Shown here in pieces: positions 23,427-31,109 of a stretch of DNA of 64,000 nt. A program made the position numbers and the translations under genes. The notes beneath the pieces are model-generated. The model saw only the letters and a list, made by a program, of their open reading frames with translations, was not told where the DNA came from and did not search any database. The stretch comes from Escherichia coli. Lineage in GTDB: Bacteria; Pseudomonadota; Gammaproteobacteria; Enterobacterales; Enterobacteriaceae. The stretch is taken from the NCBI RefSeq assembly GCF_046105845.1, contig NZ_CP151004.1; one strand, 5' to 3'. Numbering within the stretch: the first letter of the stretch is position 1; each line of letters begins with the position of its first letter.

Positions 23427-23448
23427 ACTCACGGGGACTGGATTGATT

Positions 23449-23958
23449 ATGTACACTTCAGGCTATGCACATCGTTCTTCGTCGTTCTCATCCGCAGCAA
23501 GTAAAATTGCGCGTGTCTCTACGGAAAACACTACAGCCGGGCTTATCAGTGAAGTTGTCTATCGCGAAGATCAGCCCATGATGACGCAACTTCTACTGTT
23601 GCCATTGTTACAGCAACTCGGTCAGCAATCGCGCTGGCAACTCTGGTTAACACCGCAACAAAAACTGAGTCGGGAATGGGTTCAGGCATCTGGGCTACCC
23701 TTAACGAAAGTGATGCAGATTAGCCAGCTCTCCCCTTGCCACACTGTGGAGTCAATGGTTCGCGCTTTACGCACGGGCAATTACAGTGTGGTGATCGGTT
23801 GGTTGGCAGATGATTTGACTGAAGAAGAGCATGCTGAACTTGTTGATGCGGCAAATGAAGGTAACGCTATGGGGTTTATTATGCGTCCGGTAAGCGCATC
23901 CTCTCACGCAACGAGACAACTTTCCGGGCTAAAAATTCACTCTAATTTGTATCATTAA
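23449..23958 (+). CDS. sulA: SOS cell-division inhibitor SulA
   Basis: ORF trimmed to [19 protein letters not shown] (169 aa). Confidence 0.95.
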
Positions 23959-24313: not shown

Positions 24314-25354
24314 ATGAAAAAGACAGCTATCGCGATTGCAGTGGCACTGGCTGGTTTCGCTACCGTAGCGCAGGCCGCTCCGAAAGATAACACCTGGTAC
24401 ACTGGTGCTAAACTGGGCTGGTCCCAGTACCATGACACTGGTTTCATCAACAACAATGGTCCGACCCATGAAAACCAACTGGGCGCTGGTGCTTTTGGTG
24501 GTTACCAGGTTAACCCGTATGTTGGCTTTGAAATGGGTTATGACTGGTTAGGTCGTATGCCATACAAAGGCAGCGTTGAAAACGGTGCATATAAAGCTCA
24601 GGGCGTTCAGCTGACCGCTAAACTGGGTTACCCAATCACTGACGATCTGGACGTATACACTCGTCTGGGTGGTATGGTATGGCGTGCAGACACTAAATCC
24701 AACTTTGATGGTAAAAACCACGACACCGGCGTTTCTCCGGTCTTCGCTGGCGGTGTTGAGTACGCGATCACTCCTGAAATCGCTACCCGTCTGGAATACC
24801 AGTGGACCAACAACATCGGTGACGCACACACCATCGGTACTCGTCCGGACAACGGCATGCTGAGCCTGGGTGTTTCCTACCGTTTCGGTCAGGGCGAAGC
24901 AGCTCCAGTAGTTGCTCCGGCTCCAGCTCCGGCACCGGAAGTACAGACCAAGCACTTCACTCTGAAGTCTGACGTTCTGTTCACCTTCAACAAAGCAACC
25001 CTGAAACCGGAAGGTCAGGCTGCTCTGGATCAGCTGTACAGCCAGCTGAGCAACCTGGATCCGAAAGACGGTTCCGTAGTTGTTCTGGGTTACACCGACC
25101 GCATCGGTTCTGACGCTTACAACCAGGGTCTGTCCGAGCGCCGTGCTCAGTCTGTTGTTGATTACCTGATCTCTAAAGGTATCCCGGCAGACAAAATCTC
25201 CGCACGTGGCATGGGCGAATCCAACCCGGTTACTGGCAACACCTGTGACAACGTGAAACAGCGTGCTGCACTGATCGACTGCCTGGCTCCGGATCGTCGC
25301 GTAGAGATCGAAGTTAAAGGTATCAAAGACGTTGTAACTCAGCCGCAGGCTTAA
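24314..25354 (+). CDS. ompA: Outer membrane protein A
   Basis: [21 protein letters not shown] signal peptide, 346 aa, APAPAPAP hinge, C-terminal OmpA peptidoglycan-binding domain. Confidence 0.97.
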
Positions 25355-25369
25355 GTTCTCGTCTGGTAG

Positions 25370-25398
25370 AAAAACCCCGCTGCTGCGGGGTTTTTTTT
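25370..25398. terminator. Rho-independent terminator of ompA (shared with convergent matP)
   Basis: AAAAACCCCGC-tgct-GCGGGG followed by TTTTTTTT; A-tract on the other side. Confidence 0.8.
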
Positions 25399-25430
25399 CG
25401 CCTTGCGTAAATTGAACTGACTTTCGTCAG

Positions 25431-25883
25431 TTATTCCTTACCCAGCAATGCCTGCAGATCCTGCTTCAAAGAAGACATTTTATTCGCGTATTTCTCTTTG
25501 TTTTCCGCATCTTCAATCAGCTGAACAATCGTTTCAGAAAGCGTTTTACCGCGACGCTGCGCAAGACCAGCCAGACGTTGCCAGACAATAAATTCCAGAT
25601 CGATCGATTTTTTGCGCGTATGCTGGTGTTCCGCATTAAAATGGCGCTTCCGTCTGGCCCGAATGGTTTGCTTCATGCGATTGACCAGTTCCGGATTCAT
25701 ATGCTTGTCAATCCAGCCATTTACCAGCACGGGTTCATTTTCCAGCGAGAGCAACACATCGACGGCTTCCTGGGCGGCACTGGCTTCTATGTAACGGGTG
25801 ATTAACTCCCCTTCGCGATGCTTCTTCACCAGATACTTCCATTTCCAACCGCTTTCAAGATTTTCAAGTTGTTGATATTTCAT
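25431..25883 (-). CDS. matP: Macrodomain Ter protein MatP
   Basis: 150-aa [29 protein letters not shown]; recognised as MatP (YcbG). Confidence 0.95.
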
Positions 25884-26068
25884 AGCGATCTCAATGTTAC
25901 CGTGTAACTCTTTACAGAATATCAGCTTTTTAGGCCAGTGAAGAAAAGAATCTCCATCCTGTGAGCTTTAACGCCCATGCCAGGAGTATTGTCGGTGCTT
26001 TCTACGTGTGCTGCAGTGCCGGTTACGGTATAATCGCGGCTTTGACAACAGACTAAAAAACATCAACT

Positions 26069-27829
26069 TTGACCATTACGAAACTTGCATGGCGTGACCT
26101 GGTTCCTGATACCGATAGCTATCAGGAAATATTTGCTCAGCCACATTTGATTGACGAAAACGATCCTTTATTCAGTGATACTCAACAGCGACTGCAATTT
26201 GCGCTGGAGCAGTTGCTGCATACGCGAGCATCCTCCTCTTTTATGCTGGCGAAAGCCCCGGAAGAGTCTGAGTATCTGAATCTTATTGCCGATGCCGCGC
26301 GTACGCTACAAAGCGATGCAGGCCAACTTGTGGGCGGTCACTATGAGGTTTCCGGGCACACCATCCGCTTACGTAACGCAGTGAGTGCAGATGATAATTT
26401 TGCGACTTTAACGCAAGTTGTCGCTGCCGACTGGGTAGAAGCGGAACAACTCTTTGGCTGCCTGCGCCAGTTTAATGGCGACATTACCCTGCAGCCAGGT
26501 CTGGTGCATCAGGCAAATGGCGGTATTCTCATCATCTCTTTGCGTACACTGCTGGCGCAACCTCTGCTGTGGATGCGGCTGAAAAATATCGTTAACCGCG
26601 AGCGTTTTGACTGGGTTGCGTTTGATGAGTCGCGCCCTCTCCCCGTCACTGTGCCTTCGATGCCATTGAAGCTGAAAGTCATTCTGGTAGGCGAACGCGA
26701 ATCATTGGCTGATTTCCAGGAGATGGAACCAGAGCTTTCAGAGCAGGCTATTTATAGCGAATTTGAAGATACTCTGCAGATTGTCGATGCGGAGTCAGTA
26801 AGCCAGTGGTGTCGCTGGGTGACATTGACCGCCAGACATAATCACTTACCTGCACCAGGAGCGGATGCCTGGCCGGTACTTATCCGCGAAGCAGCCCGCT
26901 ACACCGGTGAACAAGAAACACTTCCGCTTAGCCCGCAGTGGATCCTCCGCCAGTGTAAAGAGGTCGCCTCCCTGTGCGATGGCGACACCTTCTCCGCCGA
27001 GCAGCTAAACTTAATGCTGCAGCAGCGTGAATGGCGTGAAGGTTTCCTCGCTGAACGCATGCAGGATGAGATCCTTCAGGAGCAAATCCTGATTGAAACC
27101 GAAGGCGAACGCATCGGGCAAATTAACGCCCTTTCGGTCATTGAATTTCCGGGTCATCCACGCGCTTTTGGCGAACCTTCTCGCATTAGCTGCGTTGTGC
27201 ATATTGGCGATGGTGAATTCACCGACATCGAACGCAAAGCGGAGCTTGGCGGCAATATCCATGCGAAAGGGATGATGATCATGCAGGCGTTCCTGATGTC
27301 GGAACTACAGCTTGAGCAACAGATCCCCTTCTCAGCATCGCTGACATTTGAGCAGTCATACAGTGAAGTGGATGGCGATAGTGCCTCGATGGCTGAACTC
27401 TGCGCCCTGATAAGCGCCCTCGCCGATGTGCCGGTGAATCAGAGTATCGCTATCACAGGTTCAGTCGATCAGTTCGGTCGTGCCCAGCCGGTCGGTGGTT
27501 TAAATGAGAAAATCGAAGGCTTCTTTGCTATTTGCCAGCAACGTGAGTTAACCGGGAAACAAGGTGTCATTATCCCCACTGCTAACATTCGCCATTTAAG
27601 TCTTCACAGTGAACTGGTGAAAGCGGTAGAAGAAGGCAAATTCACCATCTGGGCAGTAGACGATGTGACTGACGCACTGCCGTTATTATTAAATCTGGTG
27701 TGGGATGGCGAAGGCCAAACGACGCTGATGCAAACCATCCAGGAACGTATCGCGCAAGCATCGCAACAGGAAGGACGTCACCGTTTTCCATGGCCATTAC
27801 GTTGGCTGAACTGGTTTATTCCGAACTGA
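26069..27829 (+). CDS. ycbZ: Lon-like protease homologue YcbZ (no recognisable AAA+ Walker A motif)
   Basis: 586-aa ORF; Lon S16 protease domain with Ser in DGDSAS and Lys in GGLNEKIEG; recognised as YcbZ. Confidence 0.93.
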
Positions 27830-27859
27830 TCGGACTTGTTCAGCGTACACGTGTTAGCT
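27824..27859 (+). promoter_or_regulatory. fabA operators: FadR site (27824..27840) and FabR palindrome (27842..27859)
   Basis: AACTGATCGGACTTGTT resembles the FadR consensus AACTGGTCNGACCAGTT; AGCGTACACGTGTTAGCT matches the FabR operator as recalled; FadR site contains the ycbZ stop codon. Confidence 0.7.
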
Positions 27860-27897
27860 ATCCTGCGTGCTTCAATAAAATAAGGCTTACAGAGAAC

Positions 27898-28416
27898 ATG
27901 GTAGATAAACGCGAATCCTATACAAAAGAAGACCTTCTTGCCTCTGGTCGCGGTGAACTGTTTGGCGCTAAAGGCCCGCAATTGCCAGCACCAAACATGC
28001 TGATGATGGACCGTGTGGTCAAAATGACCGAAACGGGTGGTAACTTCGACAAAGGGTATGTTGAAGCAGAACTGGATATCAATCCGGATCTGTGGTTCTT
28101 CGGATGCCACTTCATTGGCGATCCGGTTATGCCGGGATGCCTGGGCCTGGACGCAATGTGGCAGCTGGTAGGGTTCTACCTCGGCTGGCTGGGCGGCGAA
28201 GGTAAAGGCCGCGCGCTGGGCGTTGGCGAAGTGAAATTCACTGGTCAGGTACTGCCGACAGCGAAAAAAGTGACCTACCGTATTCACTTTAAACGCATTG
28301 TTAACCGTCGTCTGATTATGGGCCTGGCGGATGGCGAAGTGCTGGTTGATGGTCGTTTGATCTATACCGCCAGCGACCTGAAAGTCGGTCTGTTCCAGGA
28401 TACGTCTGCCTTCTGA
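27898..28416 (+). CDS. fabA: 3-hydroxydecanoyl-ACP dehydratase/isomerase
   Basis: ORF trimmed to [23 protein letters not shown] (172 aa). Confidence 0.97.
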
Positions 28417-28443
28417 TTATAATCAGACAGAGTATCAAAAGGC

Positions 28444-28473
28444 GAAACCTCCGCAATGCGGAGGTTTCTTTTT
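28444..28473. terminator. Bidirectional terminator between convergent fabA and rmf
   Basis: GAAACCTCCGC-aat-GCGGAGGTTTC followed by TTTTT. Confidence 0.75.
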
Positions 28474-28485
28474 AAAGAGACAGAA

Positions 28486-28653
28486 TCAGGCCATTACTAC
28501 CCTGTCCGCCATGGCTTCTCGCCAGCCTCCCAGCCATTGTGACCTTTGATTCAGCGTCTGATAGGGACACATTTCTTTTGAGCGTCCGGCGATGCCGGCC
28601 TGATAACCACGTTGATGTGCCCGTTCCAGGCGATCTCGTTTTTGTCTCTTCAT
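28486..28653 (-). CDS. rmf: Ribosome modulation factor
   Basis: Minus-strand translation gives MKRQKRDRLERAHQRGYQAGIAGRSKEMCPYQTLNQRSQWLGGWREAMADRVVMA (55 aa); ORF track shows only a different-frame 65-aa ORF at 28472..28669. Confidence 0.93.
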   Translation of the reverse strand: MKRQKRDRLERAHQRGYQAGIAGRSKEMCPYQTLNQRSQWLGGWREAMADRVVMA

Positions 28654-28852
28654 GCCTCGTTTCCCTCATACTGGTTTCTGGTGGAAAAGAAAACAGTGAT
28701 TACTAAATGTGCAATCACAGTTAAGCAATACCGCGAATCATAACTGCCGTCAATGCGCAAAATTCACGCCACTGTCATATTTGTGAGCTACACGGGCATG
28801 TCGGTTGTACAAAAAATGTGAAGAGGAACAACTTTTTCCGCAAGTTAGAAAC

Positions 28853-28886
28853 AAAAAAACCGCCTCAGGCAACATACCGGAGACGG
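28853..28886 (-). terminator. Candidate terminator after pqiC
   Basis: CCGCCTC...GAGACGG stem with one G-U pair, followed on the minus strand by a U-tract. Confidence 0.45.
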
Positions 28887-28908
28887 TTATATTTACAAAT
28901 CTTTATGA

Positions 28909-29472
28909 TTACGGTAGACGCTTTATCTCTTGCGCAATAGAAGCGGCTTCCTGACTCCAGACACTGGCCAACACTTTAACCATTTCATCGTAACCATCCT
29001 GAGTTTGCACCCCTTCCAGACGGAACGGACGTTTGATCAGTTGTCCCTGGTGGTTCAACAGCCATTCACCACTGACGATGACCTTGCCATCATAGCGACC
29101 GTTAAACTCCGTTACGGTAACATTGAGCGTGTCCTGGGCGCTTCCCAGAGGCTGGGAGGCAACCACCCAGCCGGGCAGTTGCGTACTCAGGTTGGCAACC
29201 AGAGTGTTGCGCAACTGTTGATCCAACGGGCTGGCCCACAAGTTGTTGTTGGCAATCACATACTTCACATCACTGGTTTGATAAACCACACCATTTCCGG
29301 CCAGATAGTCAGGAACAGCGACCTGCTCTACCCATAACAGGCGATTACCCTGGCTGGCGGTACTTTGTGTACCGCTCTGCACCACAGGTAACTGGTAATA
29401 GTTTTTATTAATTTCGCCGGAGCTGCATCCGGCCAGCCACAGTGCTGCAATCGTCACTAGCCACTTTTTCAT
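28909..29472 (-). CDS. pqiC: Lipoprotein PqiC (YmbA) of the PqiABC lipid-transport system
   Basis: 187-aa ORF with lipoprotein signal MKKWLVTIAALWLAGC. Confidence 0.93.
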   Translation of the reverse strand: MKKWLVTIAALWLAGCSSGEINKNYYQLPVVQSGTQSTASQGNRLLWVEQVAVPDYLAGNGVVYQTSDVKYVIANNNLWASPLDQQLRNTLVANLSTQLPGWVVASQPLGSAQDTLNVTVTEFNGRYDGKVIVSGEWLLNHQGQLIKRPFRLEGVQTQDGYDEMVKVLASVWSQEAASIAQEIKRLP

Positions 29473-31109
29473 TGTTTCGCCCTCTTCGGCTCTGGATCTT
29501 TTTTGTCCTTCGCTTCAAATACCAGCGCGTTACTCTTCTCGTTGAGCGTTTTCAGCACCGGTTGCAGTTCTCGCAACACCTGATCAAGTCGCTGCATATC
29601 CGCCACCATCTTGTTGTAGGCTGCGGAGCCAGGCTGGAAGCCCTGCATGCTGCGATTCAATTCACGCAACGTTGACTGCATATCCGTCGGTAACTGCTGC
29701 ATCGACTGGCTGGCGAGGATCTTGTTCATGCTATCCAGCGTCGTTTGCAGGTTTTTCATTGTGCGCTGACTTTCAGAAAGCGTACTGGTTGCCTGTTCAA
29801 TCATCGGATTCAATGGCAGTTTGTTGATCTTATCCAACGCTTCCATCAGTCGTTGCTGGATTTGCGCCAGACCGCCGCTAACGGTCGGGATAATCTGATA
29901 ACCATTAAATTCACGAATACCGGTTATTGCAGGCGTATTTGGATAGAAATCGAGATCAACATACAGTGCGCCAGTGACCAGGTTTCCGGTTTTCAGCGAT
30001 CCGCGTAAACCACGTTTCAACAATTCGCCAAGGTGCTCAACAACATCCGCATTTTCGCCAAGCTGCATTTTCAGCCGCTCTGGCTCGATACGAATCAGTA
30101 CCGGAATACGGTAATCATCGTTAAATGTCTGACGCATATTCGGCGCAAAGAATGGCACTTTGCTTACGGTACCCAGGCGAATACCCCGGAATTCTACCGG
30201 AGCTCCCGGTTGCAGACCGCGTACCGAATCTTTAAAGAACATCAGATAATCAATGTGATCGGTGTACAACGAATCCTGAATGCTCTTCTGATCATCATAC
30301 AAAACGAAAGCTGTTTTCGGTGCCACTGGCTGCCCTAAATCCAGACCTTCCGGCACATCAAAGCTGACACCGCCACTAAGCAGCGTTGTCAATGAGCCCA
30401 TCTCCACACGCATTCCCGCTGACGTCAAATCAACCGCAATGCCACTATCTTTCCAGAAGCGAACATTGCTGGTCACCAGACGGTCATAAGGTGCATTGAT
30501 GAACAGTTGATAGCTGATATTGCGTTTTTGCGTATCGAAGGTGCTGGTTTCAACCGAACCTACCCGATAGCCACGGAACAGCACGGGATCTCCTGGCGAG
30601 AGCTGCCCGGCTTTTTTGCTATCGAGAATCACACGAATACCTTTCGCATCAGGCGGAGCCAACGGTGGCGAGTCCAGCAAATCGTATTTATCCATTTTGC
30701 TGCCTTTCGCGCCTGGCTGCAGTTCGATATAAACCCCAGACAGCAGCGTTCCCAGGCCGCTAATCCCTTCTCGACCAATCTGCGGTTTCACCACCCAAAA
30801 GACGGTATCTTTATGCAGCAATTTTTCCATACCGGAATTCAGCCGCGCTTTGATTTCAACGTGCGTCAAATCATCAGCCAGTGTGGCGCTTTCAACCACG
30901 CCGACGTCAACGCTACGGCTTTTAATGGTGGTTTTACCACCTTCTATTCCTTCCGCATTCGCGGTGATCAGGGTCACTTCCGGCCCCTGATGGCTGTAAT
31001 GATAAAAAAGAACCCAAGCCCCAATGAGCGCCGTGACGATAGGAAATATCCACACGGGAGACCAGTTCTTCACTTTCTGGATTTTGGCTTCCCCATTATT
31101 AGATTCCAT
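29469..31109 (-). CDS. pqiB: MCE-domain periplasmic protein PqiB
   Basis: ORF trimmed to MESNNGEAKIQKVKNWSPVWIFP (546 aa); three MCE domains; ATGA overlap with pqiC. Confidence 0.93.
   Translation of the reverse strand: MESNNGEAKIQKVKNWSPVWIFPIVTALIGAWVLFYHYSHQGPEVTLITANAEGIEGGKTTIKSRSVDVGVVESATLADDLTHVEIKARLNSGMEKLLHKDTVFWVVKPQIGREGISGLGTLLSGVYIELQPGAKGSKMDKYDLLDSPPLAPPDAKGIRVILDSKKAGQLSPGDPVLFRGYRVGSVETSTFDTQKRNISYQLFINAPYDRLVTSNVRFWKDSGIAVDLTSAGMRVEMGSLTTLLSGGVSFDVPEGLDLGQPVAPKTAFVLYDDQKSIQDSLYTDHIDYLMFFKDSVRGLQPGAPVEFRGIRLGTVSKVPFFAPNMRQTFNDDYRIPVLIRIEPERLKMQLGENADVVEHLGELLKRGLRGSLKTGNLVTGALYVDLDFYPNTPAITGIREFNGYQIIPTVSGGLAQIQQRLMEALDKINKLPLNPMIEQATSTLSESQRTMKNLQTTLDSMNKILASQSMQQLPTDMQSTLRELNRSMQGFQPGSAAYNKMVADMQRLDQVLRELQPVLKTLNEKSNALVFEAKDKKDPEPKRAKQ

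Follow-up and report, generated by a model that had tools for sequence, protein, structure and literature searches.

YcbZ (LonH) of Escherichia coli, a reduced LonC-type Lon homolog with an intact Ser-Lys site and an AAA+ fold stripped of its Walker motifs

LonC was defined in 2012 as the third clade of Lon proteases, its members having an active site like that of LonB and none of the AAA+ consensus motifs (PMC3391209). The homolog list of that study includes Klebsiella, Salmonella, Vibrio and Yersinia, and E. coli is said there to have more than one Lon subfamily. Here we describe ycbZ (lonH), a Lon homolog encoded within a 64,000-nucleotide (nt) stretch of Escherichia coli contig NZ_CP151004.1 (assembly GCF_046105845.1; below, the window, whose first letter is position 1). 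Though a core gene product, YcbZ is one of the few E. coli K-12 proteases without a known substrate or biochemical description; its function was still called uncharacterised in 2022 (PMC8848927, PMC9697503) and 2026 (PMC13232886), which agrees with the initial annotation of the window, where the gene was listed as little characterised. Our analysis indicates that YcbZ is probably a LonC-type, ATP-independent, chamber-forming Ser-Lys protease with a dead AAA+ tier, and the structural part of this reading is held with greater confidence than the statement as a whole.

The closest described system is the LonC subfamily (MEROPS S16.007), represented by MtaLonC of Meiothermus taiwanensis and TTC1975 of Thermus (PDB 4fw9, 4fwd, 7ev4, 8k8v). 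MtaLonC is devoid of ATPase activity and needs no ATP to degrade unfolded proteins, folded ones being spared; binding of ATPgammaS was seen by isothermal titration calorimetry, and sensor-1, the Arg finger and sensor-2 are replaced or disrupted (PMC3391209). Cryo-electron microscopy revealed only phosphate in its P-loop, and its helical-hairpin extensions form a basket for chaperone activity and substrate handling (PMC13069640, 2024), the heptamer having a chaperone mode (PMC13069640). Ring oligomers that degrade unfolded substrates independently of ATP have been demonstrated for MtaLonC and TTC1975 only (PMC3391209, PMC13069640). The catalytic residues of MtaLonC, Ser582 and Lys625, are experimentally defined and were mutated in published inactive variants.

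The gene under study was located as follows.

26069..27829, + strand: ycbZ (lonH) coding sequence, 586 amino acids (aa), TTG start and TGA stop; from the open reading frame (ORF) list, identical to the RefSeq ycbZ annotation

Its product is 100% identical to RefSeq WP_001558926.1, and of 5426 complete E. coli genomes, 5425 carry the gene. Among 1.84 billion cluster representatives searched, 3104 relatives were found, falling into three length classes (approximately 540-610, 640-730 and 780-845 aa), of which only the short class aligns with YcbZ from residue 1; the start call is supported by this alignment. For column-by-column comparison, 140 of the 3104 relatives were aligned with YcbZ placed first (alignment A1).

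The protease part of the protein comprises four features.

27089..27709, + strand: Lon (S16) protease domain, residues 341-547, the most conserved part of the protein (63% mean identity among short forms)
27380..27382, + strand: codon of catalytic Ser438, in a LonB/LonC-type D-G-D-S-A-S motif; aligns to MtaLonC Ser582, invariant in 140 sequences
27509..27511, + strand: codon of catalytic Lys481; aligns to MtaLonC Lys625, invariant in 140 sequences
27533..27556, + strand: LonC-specific insertion 1 (consensus CX3GLX[G/E]), C489-QQR-E-L-T-G496 in YcbZ; signature from PMC3391209, with column counts

A Lon protease-domain fold is present in YcbZ. The Pfam Lon_C profile (PF05362) matched residues 435-539 with 40.0 bits (cutoff 21.1) and was also matched by all 36 short-form relatives searched. 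A phmmer search of PDB sequences gave MtaLonC ("TTC1975 peptidase") as the best hit (E 6e-58), the match covering only residues 140-547 of YcbZ and 296-691 of MtaLonC; in this alignment Ser438 and Lys481 correspond residue for residue to Ser582 and Lys625. The dyad proposed in the initial annotation (DGDSAS...GGLNEKIEG) was recovered at residues 435-440 (Ser438) and 476-484 (Lys481).

Across the 140 diverse homologs, 13 positions do not vary, Ser438, Lys481, Gly436 and Asp437 among them. The invariance of the dyad and of its active-site surroundings, together with the protease domain being better conserved than any other part of the protein, argues for selection on catalysis. The residue preceding the catalytic Ser is Asp437, not Pro, which is the criterion for a LonB/LonC-type active site (PMC9569914). 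Both LonC-specific insertions are also recognizable: insertion 1 (CQQRELTG, residues 489-496) has one deviation, Glu493 where Gly is commonest (C489 in 135, L in 119 and G496 in 125 of 140 sequences), and the second, LVKAV at residues 516-520, fits the pattern (A519 in 136 of 140).

The N-terminal part of the protein has a different character, as the following features indicate.

26069..26485, + strand: residues 1-139, first half of a degenerate AAA+ alpha/beta subdomain; AlphaFold2 model (predicted local distance difference test score, pLDDT, approximately 89-98), superposition on MtaLonC and alignment to P-loop-bearing relatives
26255..26275, + strand: Walker A/P-loop remnant A63-P-E-E-S-E-Y69, where long relatives have G-x-x-G-x-G-[K/R]; column counts from alignment A1
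26486..26743, + strand: residues 140-225, second half of the AAA-like alpha/beta subdomain (Pfam AAA_32, "LonB-like AAA domain"; E 5.8e-14, 52.7 bits)
26525..26542, + strand: Walker B remnant I153-L-I-I-S157-L158; MtaLonC alignment, column counts and model strand 153-157
26765..27088, + strand: helical lid (alpha subdomain), residues 233-340; seen as helices 241-336 of the model and in the alignments with MtaLonC and TonLonB

Only two Pfam families, AAA_32 (residues 140-225) and Lon_C (435-539), matched YcbZ above cutoff, and both Walker motifs, A and B, are absent from the AAA module found in this way. The AlphaFold2 model, run on alignment A1, has a mean pLDDT of 95.5 and a predicted template modelling (TM) score of 0.91, with lower confidence for approximately the last 20 residues. 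When the model was compared with the PDB using Foldseek, MtaLonC crystal protomers, in which the helical-hairpin extension is unresolved, came first (E 1e-44, whole-chain TM score 0.82-0.83), followed by TonLonB of Thermococcus onnurineus (0.72); whole-chain scores for LonA were 0.3-0.4. Because of this similarity to MtaLonC and TonLonB, the first 340 residues have the fold of an AAA+ module: the alpha/beta and lid architecture is retained in YcbZ, with the Walker strands devoid of motif residues.

In the model, residues 1-139 consist of strand beta1 (58-62), the remodelled P-loop, a helix (67-80) and a beta-rich segment. This region alone gave no sequence match in PDB or Pfam; its identity as a novel domain was ruled out, the model and the alignment both assigning it to the AAA-like alpha/beta subdomain, as its first half.

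Regular-expression scanning of the whole YcbZ protein for GxxxxGK[ST], [AG]xxxxGK[ST] and the GK[ST] tripeptide gave no match, so that the absence of Walker A, previously noted for the N-terminal 350 residues, extends to the entire sequence. At the P-loop column of the alignment, 54-55 of the 62 long forms have Gly at each Gly position, followed by Lys (31) or Arg (25). In YcbZ the flanking beta-strand and helix are retained, and the motif occurs in none of 42 short-form relatives. Judged from these aligned sequences, the missing Walker A goes beyond a chance absence, the homologous loop being replaced by APEESEY.

A canonical AAA+ Walker B reads hhhh-D-E. Long forms have hhhh-[D/E]-A at this column (D in 42, E in 12), whereas short forms have Ser, Pro or Gly; the Walker B-like GGYLILDA of MtaLonC is aligned with GGILIISL of YcbZ, which places Ser157 opposite the Asp. 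WVAFDE (residues 182-187), the only hhhhDE string in the protein, was considered as a cryptic Walker B and rejected: it is mostly coil in the model (residues 179-180 alone being strand), and beta3 is formed by residues 153-157. The same degeneration is visible in profile scores, AAA_32 giving 52.7 bits with YcbZ versus 136-186 bits with long relatives, and the Pfam LonB AAA-lid family matching 3 of 36 short forms versus 8 of 8 long forms. The AAA+ region of short forms is nevertheless still conserved, with 29-47% mean identity versus 63% for the protease domain.

A third element of LonC is missing from YcbZ altogether, at the following site.

26303..26314, + strand: residues 79-82, site of the LonC helical-hairpin extension in relatives, absent in YcbZ; insertion mapping on alignment A1 and Pfam LonC_helical

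Long forms have median inserts of 38 residues after position 79, 139 after 81 and 27 after 96, and carry approximately 180-200 extra residues at the site of residues 79-81. Mid-length forms have median inserts of 38 and 29 residues, and YcbZ has none. The position of the inserts is that of the LonC helical-hairpin extension described in PMC13069640. The corresponding Pfam family, LonC_helical (PF20437), matched 7 of 8 long forms and 0 of 36 short forms, and no match to YcbZ was obtained at E <= 1.

YcbZ therefore shares with LonC the DGDSAS active site, both protease-domain insertions and an AAA-like module without functional ATPase motifs. It differs from LonC in the absence of the helical-hairpin extension, a type-specific insertion regarded in the LonC literature as the substrate-recognition and chaperone element. 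Unlike MtaLonC, it has APEESEY in place of the phosphate-binding Walker A-like loop (GPPSLGKHE), lacks the Walker B Asp and is 586 rather than 719 aa long. Its C-terminal tail, which is basic and rich in Trp and contains a ribosome-arrest site, also sets it apart from the LonC prototypes.

Assignment to LonB or LonA was ruled out by NCBIfam scores, the lack of transmembrane segments and the low whole-chain TM scores to LonA. Archaeal LonB (TonLonB, PDB 3k1j; TIGR00764) is an ATPase with both Walker motifs intact and with an insertion that anchors it in the membrane, and YcbZ shares none of these traits. LonA (E. coli Lon/La) differs from YcbZ in its large N-terminal substrate-binding domain, functional AAA+ motor and Pro before the catalytic Ser. 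Every NCBIfam Lon equivalog scored far below its cutoff with YcbZ (TIGR00764, LonB: 88.3 bits versus 516.6; NF008053, LonA: 28.7 versus 891). No transmembrane-like segment was found in YcbZ, the maximum Kyte-Doolittle mean over 19 residues being 1.54, in buried core elements. A link to the BREX Lon-like protein BrxL or to RadA was also rejected, the sequence matches being marginal (E 0.26 and 0.039) and the fold likeness being at domain level only.

The distribution of the reduced form was examined in a genome scan with one genome per species, which gave 79 loci; at each the gene was rebuilt, FabA, Rmf and MatP were searched for, and taxonomy was taken from the scan. In the window, the gene following ycbZ is fabA.

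27898..28416, + strand: fabA, directly 3' of ycbZ and co-transcribed with it (annotation; operon in PMC4161252), a pairing kept throughout the P-loop-less clade

All forms of 545-676 aa lack GxxGxG[KR]. Among the 47 full-length P-loop-less loci, fabA lies 21-211 nt downstream on the same strand in 44, the three loci without this linkage being a contig end, an insect symbiont and Aliidiomarina. Convergent rmf follows beyond fabA in most P-loop-less loci, and divergent matP lies upstream of ycbZ in Enterobacterales, Vibrionaceae and Pasteurellaceae. The complete order matP(-) / ycbZ(+) fabA(+) / rmf(-), which occupies 25431-28653 in the window, is kept across Enterobacterales and Vibrionaceae (loci L011-L060 and L073 of the scan). 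Pasteurellaceae have matP-ycbZ-fabA with no rmf nearby, Aeromonas and Idiomarina have ycbZ-fabA-rmf with no matP nearby, and Orbaceae and Oceanisphaera keep ycbZ-fabA alone; other neighbours vary among loci. In contrast to this conserved ycbZ-fabA/rmf locus, none of the 29 long forms, which are 786-889 aa long and for the most part carry a P-loop, has fabA, rmf or matP as a neighbour. Independent metagenomic look-ups agree with this pattern.

A neighbor-joining tree without support values groups the 47 P-loop-less proteins together, as a single clade within the gammaproteobacterial long forms; the earliest to branch in it are proteins of 650-676 aa from Aeromonas, Idiomarina and Oceanisphaera. 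In several genomes of Vibrio and Photobacterium, a short fabA-linked copy occurs together with a long copy. Such pairs were seen in Vibrio hepatarius (L038/L061), V. bivalvicida (L042/L057) and Photobacterium aquimaris (L050/L086), the long copy being approximately 790 aa with GxNGLGK. Since single genomes hold both short P-loop-less and long P-loop paralogs, an old duplication is indicated; read most simply, one of the two copies was then reduced step by step, the YcbZ clade having lost the P-loop and the helical-hairpin extension of approximately 180-200 residues.

An intact homolog is kept by insect symbionts with reduced genomes: Candidatus Dasytiphilus stammeri (approximately 585 kb), Candidatus Pantoea edessiphila and Pantoea sp. 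Brub (P0123; L035, L046). This retention suggests that ycbZ is not easily dispensable.

The end of the gene, where coding and regulatory signals overlap, contains three features.

27710..27826, + strand: C-terminal helix and Trp-rich basic tail, residues 548-586; model (lower confidence for approximately the last 20 residues), tail alignment and hydrophobicity
27821..27826, + strand: ribosome stall site Pro585/Asn586 (PMC8848927: ribosome profiling, reporter assays, cryo-electron microscopy 7CPJ)
27815..27870, + strand: FadR-bound fabA promoter probe; exact 56-nt match to the fabA electrophoretic mobility shift assay probe of PMC4259882

Residues 570-586 (27776-27826) have by far the highest Wimley-White interfacial hydrophobicity in YcbZ, and distant short forms retain a basic and aromatic tail. 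The composition of this segment recalls WRFAWFPA, the core of the Lon beta20 degron, which has been used as an MtaLonC substrate. In a two-hybrid analysis with RNase E, interaction was reported both for full-length YcbZ and for the 22-residue fragment 565-586 alone as prey (PMC13232886). Strong ribosome stalling occurs at Pro585/Asn586, right before the ycbZ stop codon (PMC8848927). The FadR probe covers the last four sense codons of ycbZ (Phe583-Asn586) and the TGA stop; the stall site, 68 nt upstream of the fabA ATG (27898), consequently shares nucleotides with it. A ycbZ-fabA operon has been reported from RNA sequencing (PMC4161252). The promoter overlap is a practical warning that ycbZ knockouts may be polar on fabA.

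Published genetics (stop-codon readthrough and erythromycin resistance) place YcbZ near translation. According to PMC9508795 and PMC8848927, which cite Gagarinova 2016, ycbZ mutants have increased stop-codon readthrough that is rescued by a plasmid. Erythromycin selection repeatedly gave single-nucleotide variants, indels and structural variants of ycbZ (PMC4079197), and a rebuilt inactivation mutant was resistant to erythromycin, N-methyl-N-octylamine, ethylenediaminetetraacetic acid (EDTA), norvaline and 5-fluoroorotic acid (PMC7686311; a further phenotype source is PMC6657729). In Salmonella, LonH was co-immunoprecipitated with the small protein YjiS (PMC11707872). The recurrence of ycbZ in erythromycin evolution experiments adds to the interest of the gene.

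YcbZ thus has an intact conserved Ser-Lys site and an AAA+ fold without Walker A or B and without the extension, and its closest relative in structure and sequence is ATP-independent by experiment. In the mechanism proposed here, residues 341-547 are an intact Lon protease domain with the catalytic pair Ser438 and Lys481, and residues 1-340 are a LonB/LonC-type AAA+ fold stripped of nucleotide-handling motifs. YcbZ would assemble as a ring whose dead AAA+ module has no role beyond scaffolding and axial gating of the proteolytic chamber beneath it. Chains that arrive unfolded, or are intrinsically disordered, may enter passively, without ATP-driven translocation, and would be cleaved by Ser438/Lys481 without ATP, by analogy with the MtaLonC experiments. 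Because the P-loop, the Walker B Asp and the substrate-capturing basket extension are all missing, substrate choice must rest on other features, possibly the pore, the Trp-rich tail or a partner. The lost ATPase motifs and the missing recognition element caution against applying the chaperone/basket mechanism of MtaLonC to YcbZ.

Several points weigh against the proposed mechanism. What is said here of YcbZ's oligomerization, peptidase activity and failure to bind nucleotide derives from homology and motifs, and its identity to MtaLonC is only 25-28%. Transfer of the unfolded-protein rule is uncertain, since MtaLonC is a heat-shock protein of a thermophile and relies on the extension that YcbZ lacks. 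The apparent loss of ATPase motifs is judged on Walker A and Walker B. The readthrough phenotype is taken from citing papers rather than from the primary source, and, with the fabA promoter lying inside the 3' end of ycbZ, polar effects on fabA could account for part of the antibiotic phenotypes.

A wider interpretation, which we regard as speculative and unlikely, is that YcbZ-type proteins are a functionally distinct, undescribed branch of Lon. On this view they would work as minimal chamber proteases free of nucleotide, which arose by gammaproteobacterial duplication (Vibrio keeps both copies) and stepwise loss of the P-loop and basket, became fixed in the ycbZ-fabA/rmf locus and cut small disordered substrates linked to translation (RMF, stalled nascent chains or a termination factor), with the tail as a regulatory or targeting element.

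The alternative that fares best is that ycbZ matters mostly in cis, its ORF and arrest peptide tuning fabA, and that the antibiotic phenotypes reflect polar effects on fabA and membrane lipids. The ycbZ-fabA operon (PMC4161252) without an intervening terminator, the overlap of the FadR-bound fabA promoter DNA with the last ycbZ codons and the validated stall site (PMC8848927), the constancy of fabA as neighbour (44 of 47 clade loci) amid otherwise variable surroundings, and a resistance spectrum including EDTA and amphiphiles, suggestive of an envelope effect (PMC7686311), are all consistent with it. However, it leaves the catalytic invariance and the purifying selection over 586 codons unexplained, Pro585 and Asn586 are poorly conserved beyond close relatives (PMC8848927; tail alignment), and fabA has its own promoters. 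We consider this alternative quite unlikely as a full account, but it deserves weight when ycbZ knockouts are interpreted.

It is very unlikely that YcbZ is mainly a non-degradative scaffold, holdase or adaptor (e.g. of RNase E or the ribosome) whose proteolysis is vestigial or limited to self-processing. The chaperone mode of the MtaLonC heptamer (PMC13069640), the two-hybrid interaction of RNase E with full-length YcbZ and its 22-residue tail (PMC13232886) and the YjiS co-immunoprecipitation in Salmonella (PMC11707872) point in this direction; yet the chaperone activity of MtaLonC maps to the helical-hairpin extension, which is missing in YcbZ, the interaction data come from screens without pull-down validation, and the invariant dyad in the most conserved domain argues for selection on catalysis. 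That YcbZ is a genuine ATP-dependent AAA+ protease, binding and hydrolysing ATP via non-canonical residues, is extremely improbable: the RefSeq name "AAA family ATPase", the common label "putative ATP-dependent protease", the AAA_32 match, the AAA+ fold and the binding of ATPgammaS by MtaLonC (PMC3391209) would fit, but both the Walker A Lys and the Gly-rich loop are missing, the site instead has acidic E65, E66 and E68, which would repel phosphate, the Walker B acid is absent, NCBIfam Lon equivalogs are far under cutoff (LonB 88 versus 516), and even the P-loop-bearing MtaLonC has no ATPase activity (PMC3391209) and phosphate alone in the cryo-electron microscopy structure (PMC13069640).

Both names are unsupported. 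"AAA family ATPase", which probably traces to the Pfam AAA_32 match, is at odds with the missing Walker A and Walker B; it is misleading and a candidate for annotation correction. The reading of YcbZ given in the initial annotation is supported; with the LonC-type protease favoured above, YcbZ is a known gene of a known class, an unusually reduced version of the already described LonC group. The reduced architecture, single-clade origin, Vibrio paralogs and fabA/rmf linkage are refinements that were not found stated in the available papers, and they do not make the finding categorically new.

The annotated gene order around ycbZ is sulA, ompA, matP(-), ycbZ(+), fabA(+), rmf(-), pqiCBA(-), and the 586-aa ORF that had been placed between matP and fabA indeed lies at exactly 26069..27829 (+), flanked by matP (-) and fabA (+). 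A Shine-Dalgarno sequence is not obvious in the region of the TTG start (26029-26071). A sigma-70 consensus scan of 25800-28750 revealed no promoter-like site, an Rfam scan of 25000-29500 gave no match, and the terminator scan found none between ycbZ and fabA. The sulA gene (approximately 23436-23945), encoding a classic substrate of canonical Lon, is located three genes upstream of the Lon homolog ycbZ; nothing ties the two functionally, and this nearness is probably a coincidence. One terminator was identified downstream of fabA.

28444..28468, both strands: bidirectional intrinsic terminator in the fabA/rmf interval, with an 11-bp stem (7 GC pairs) and T-runs on both strands

This strong terminator separates the convergent fabA and rmf genes.

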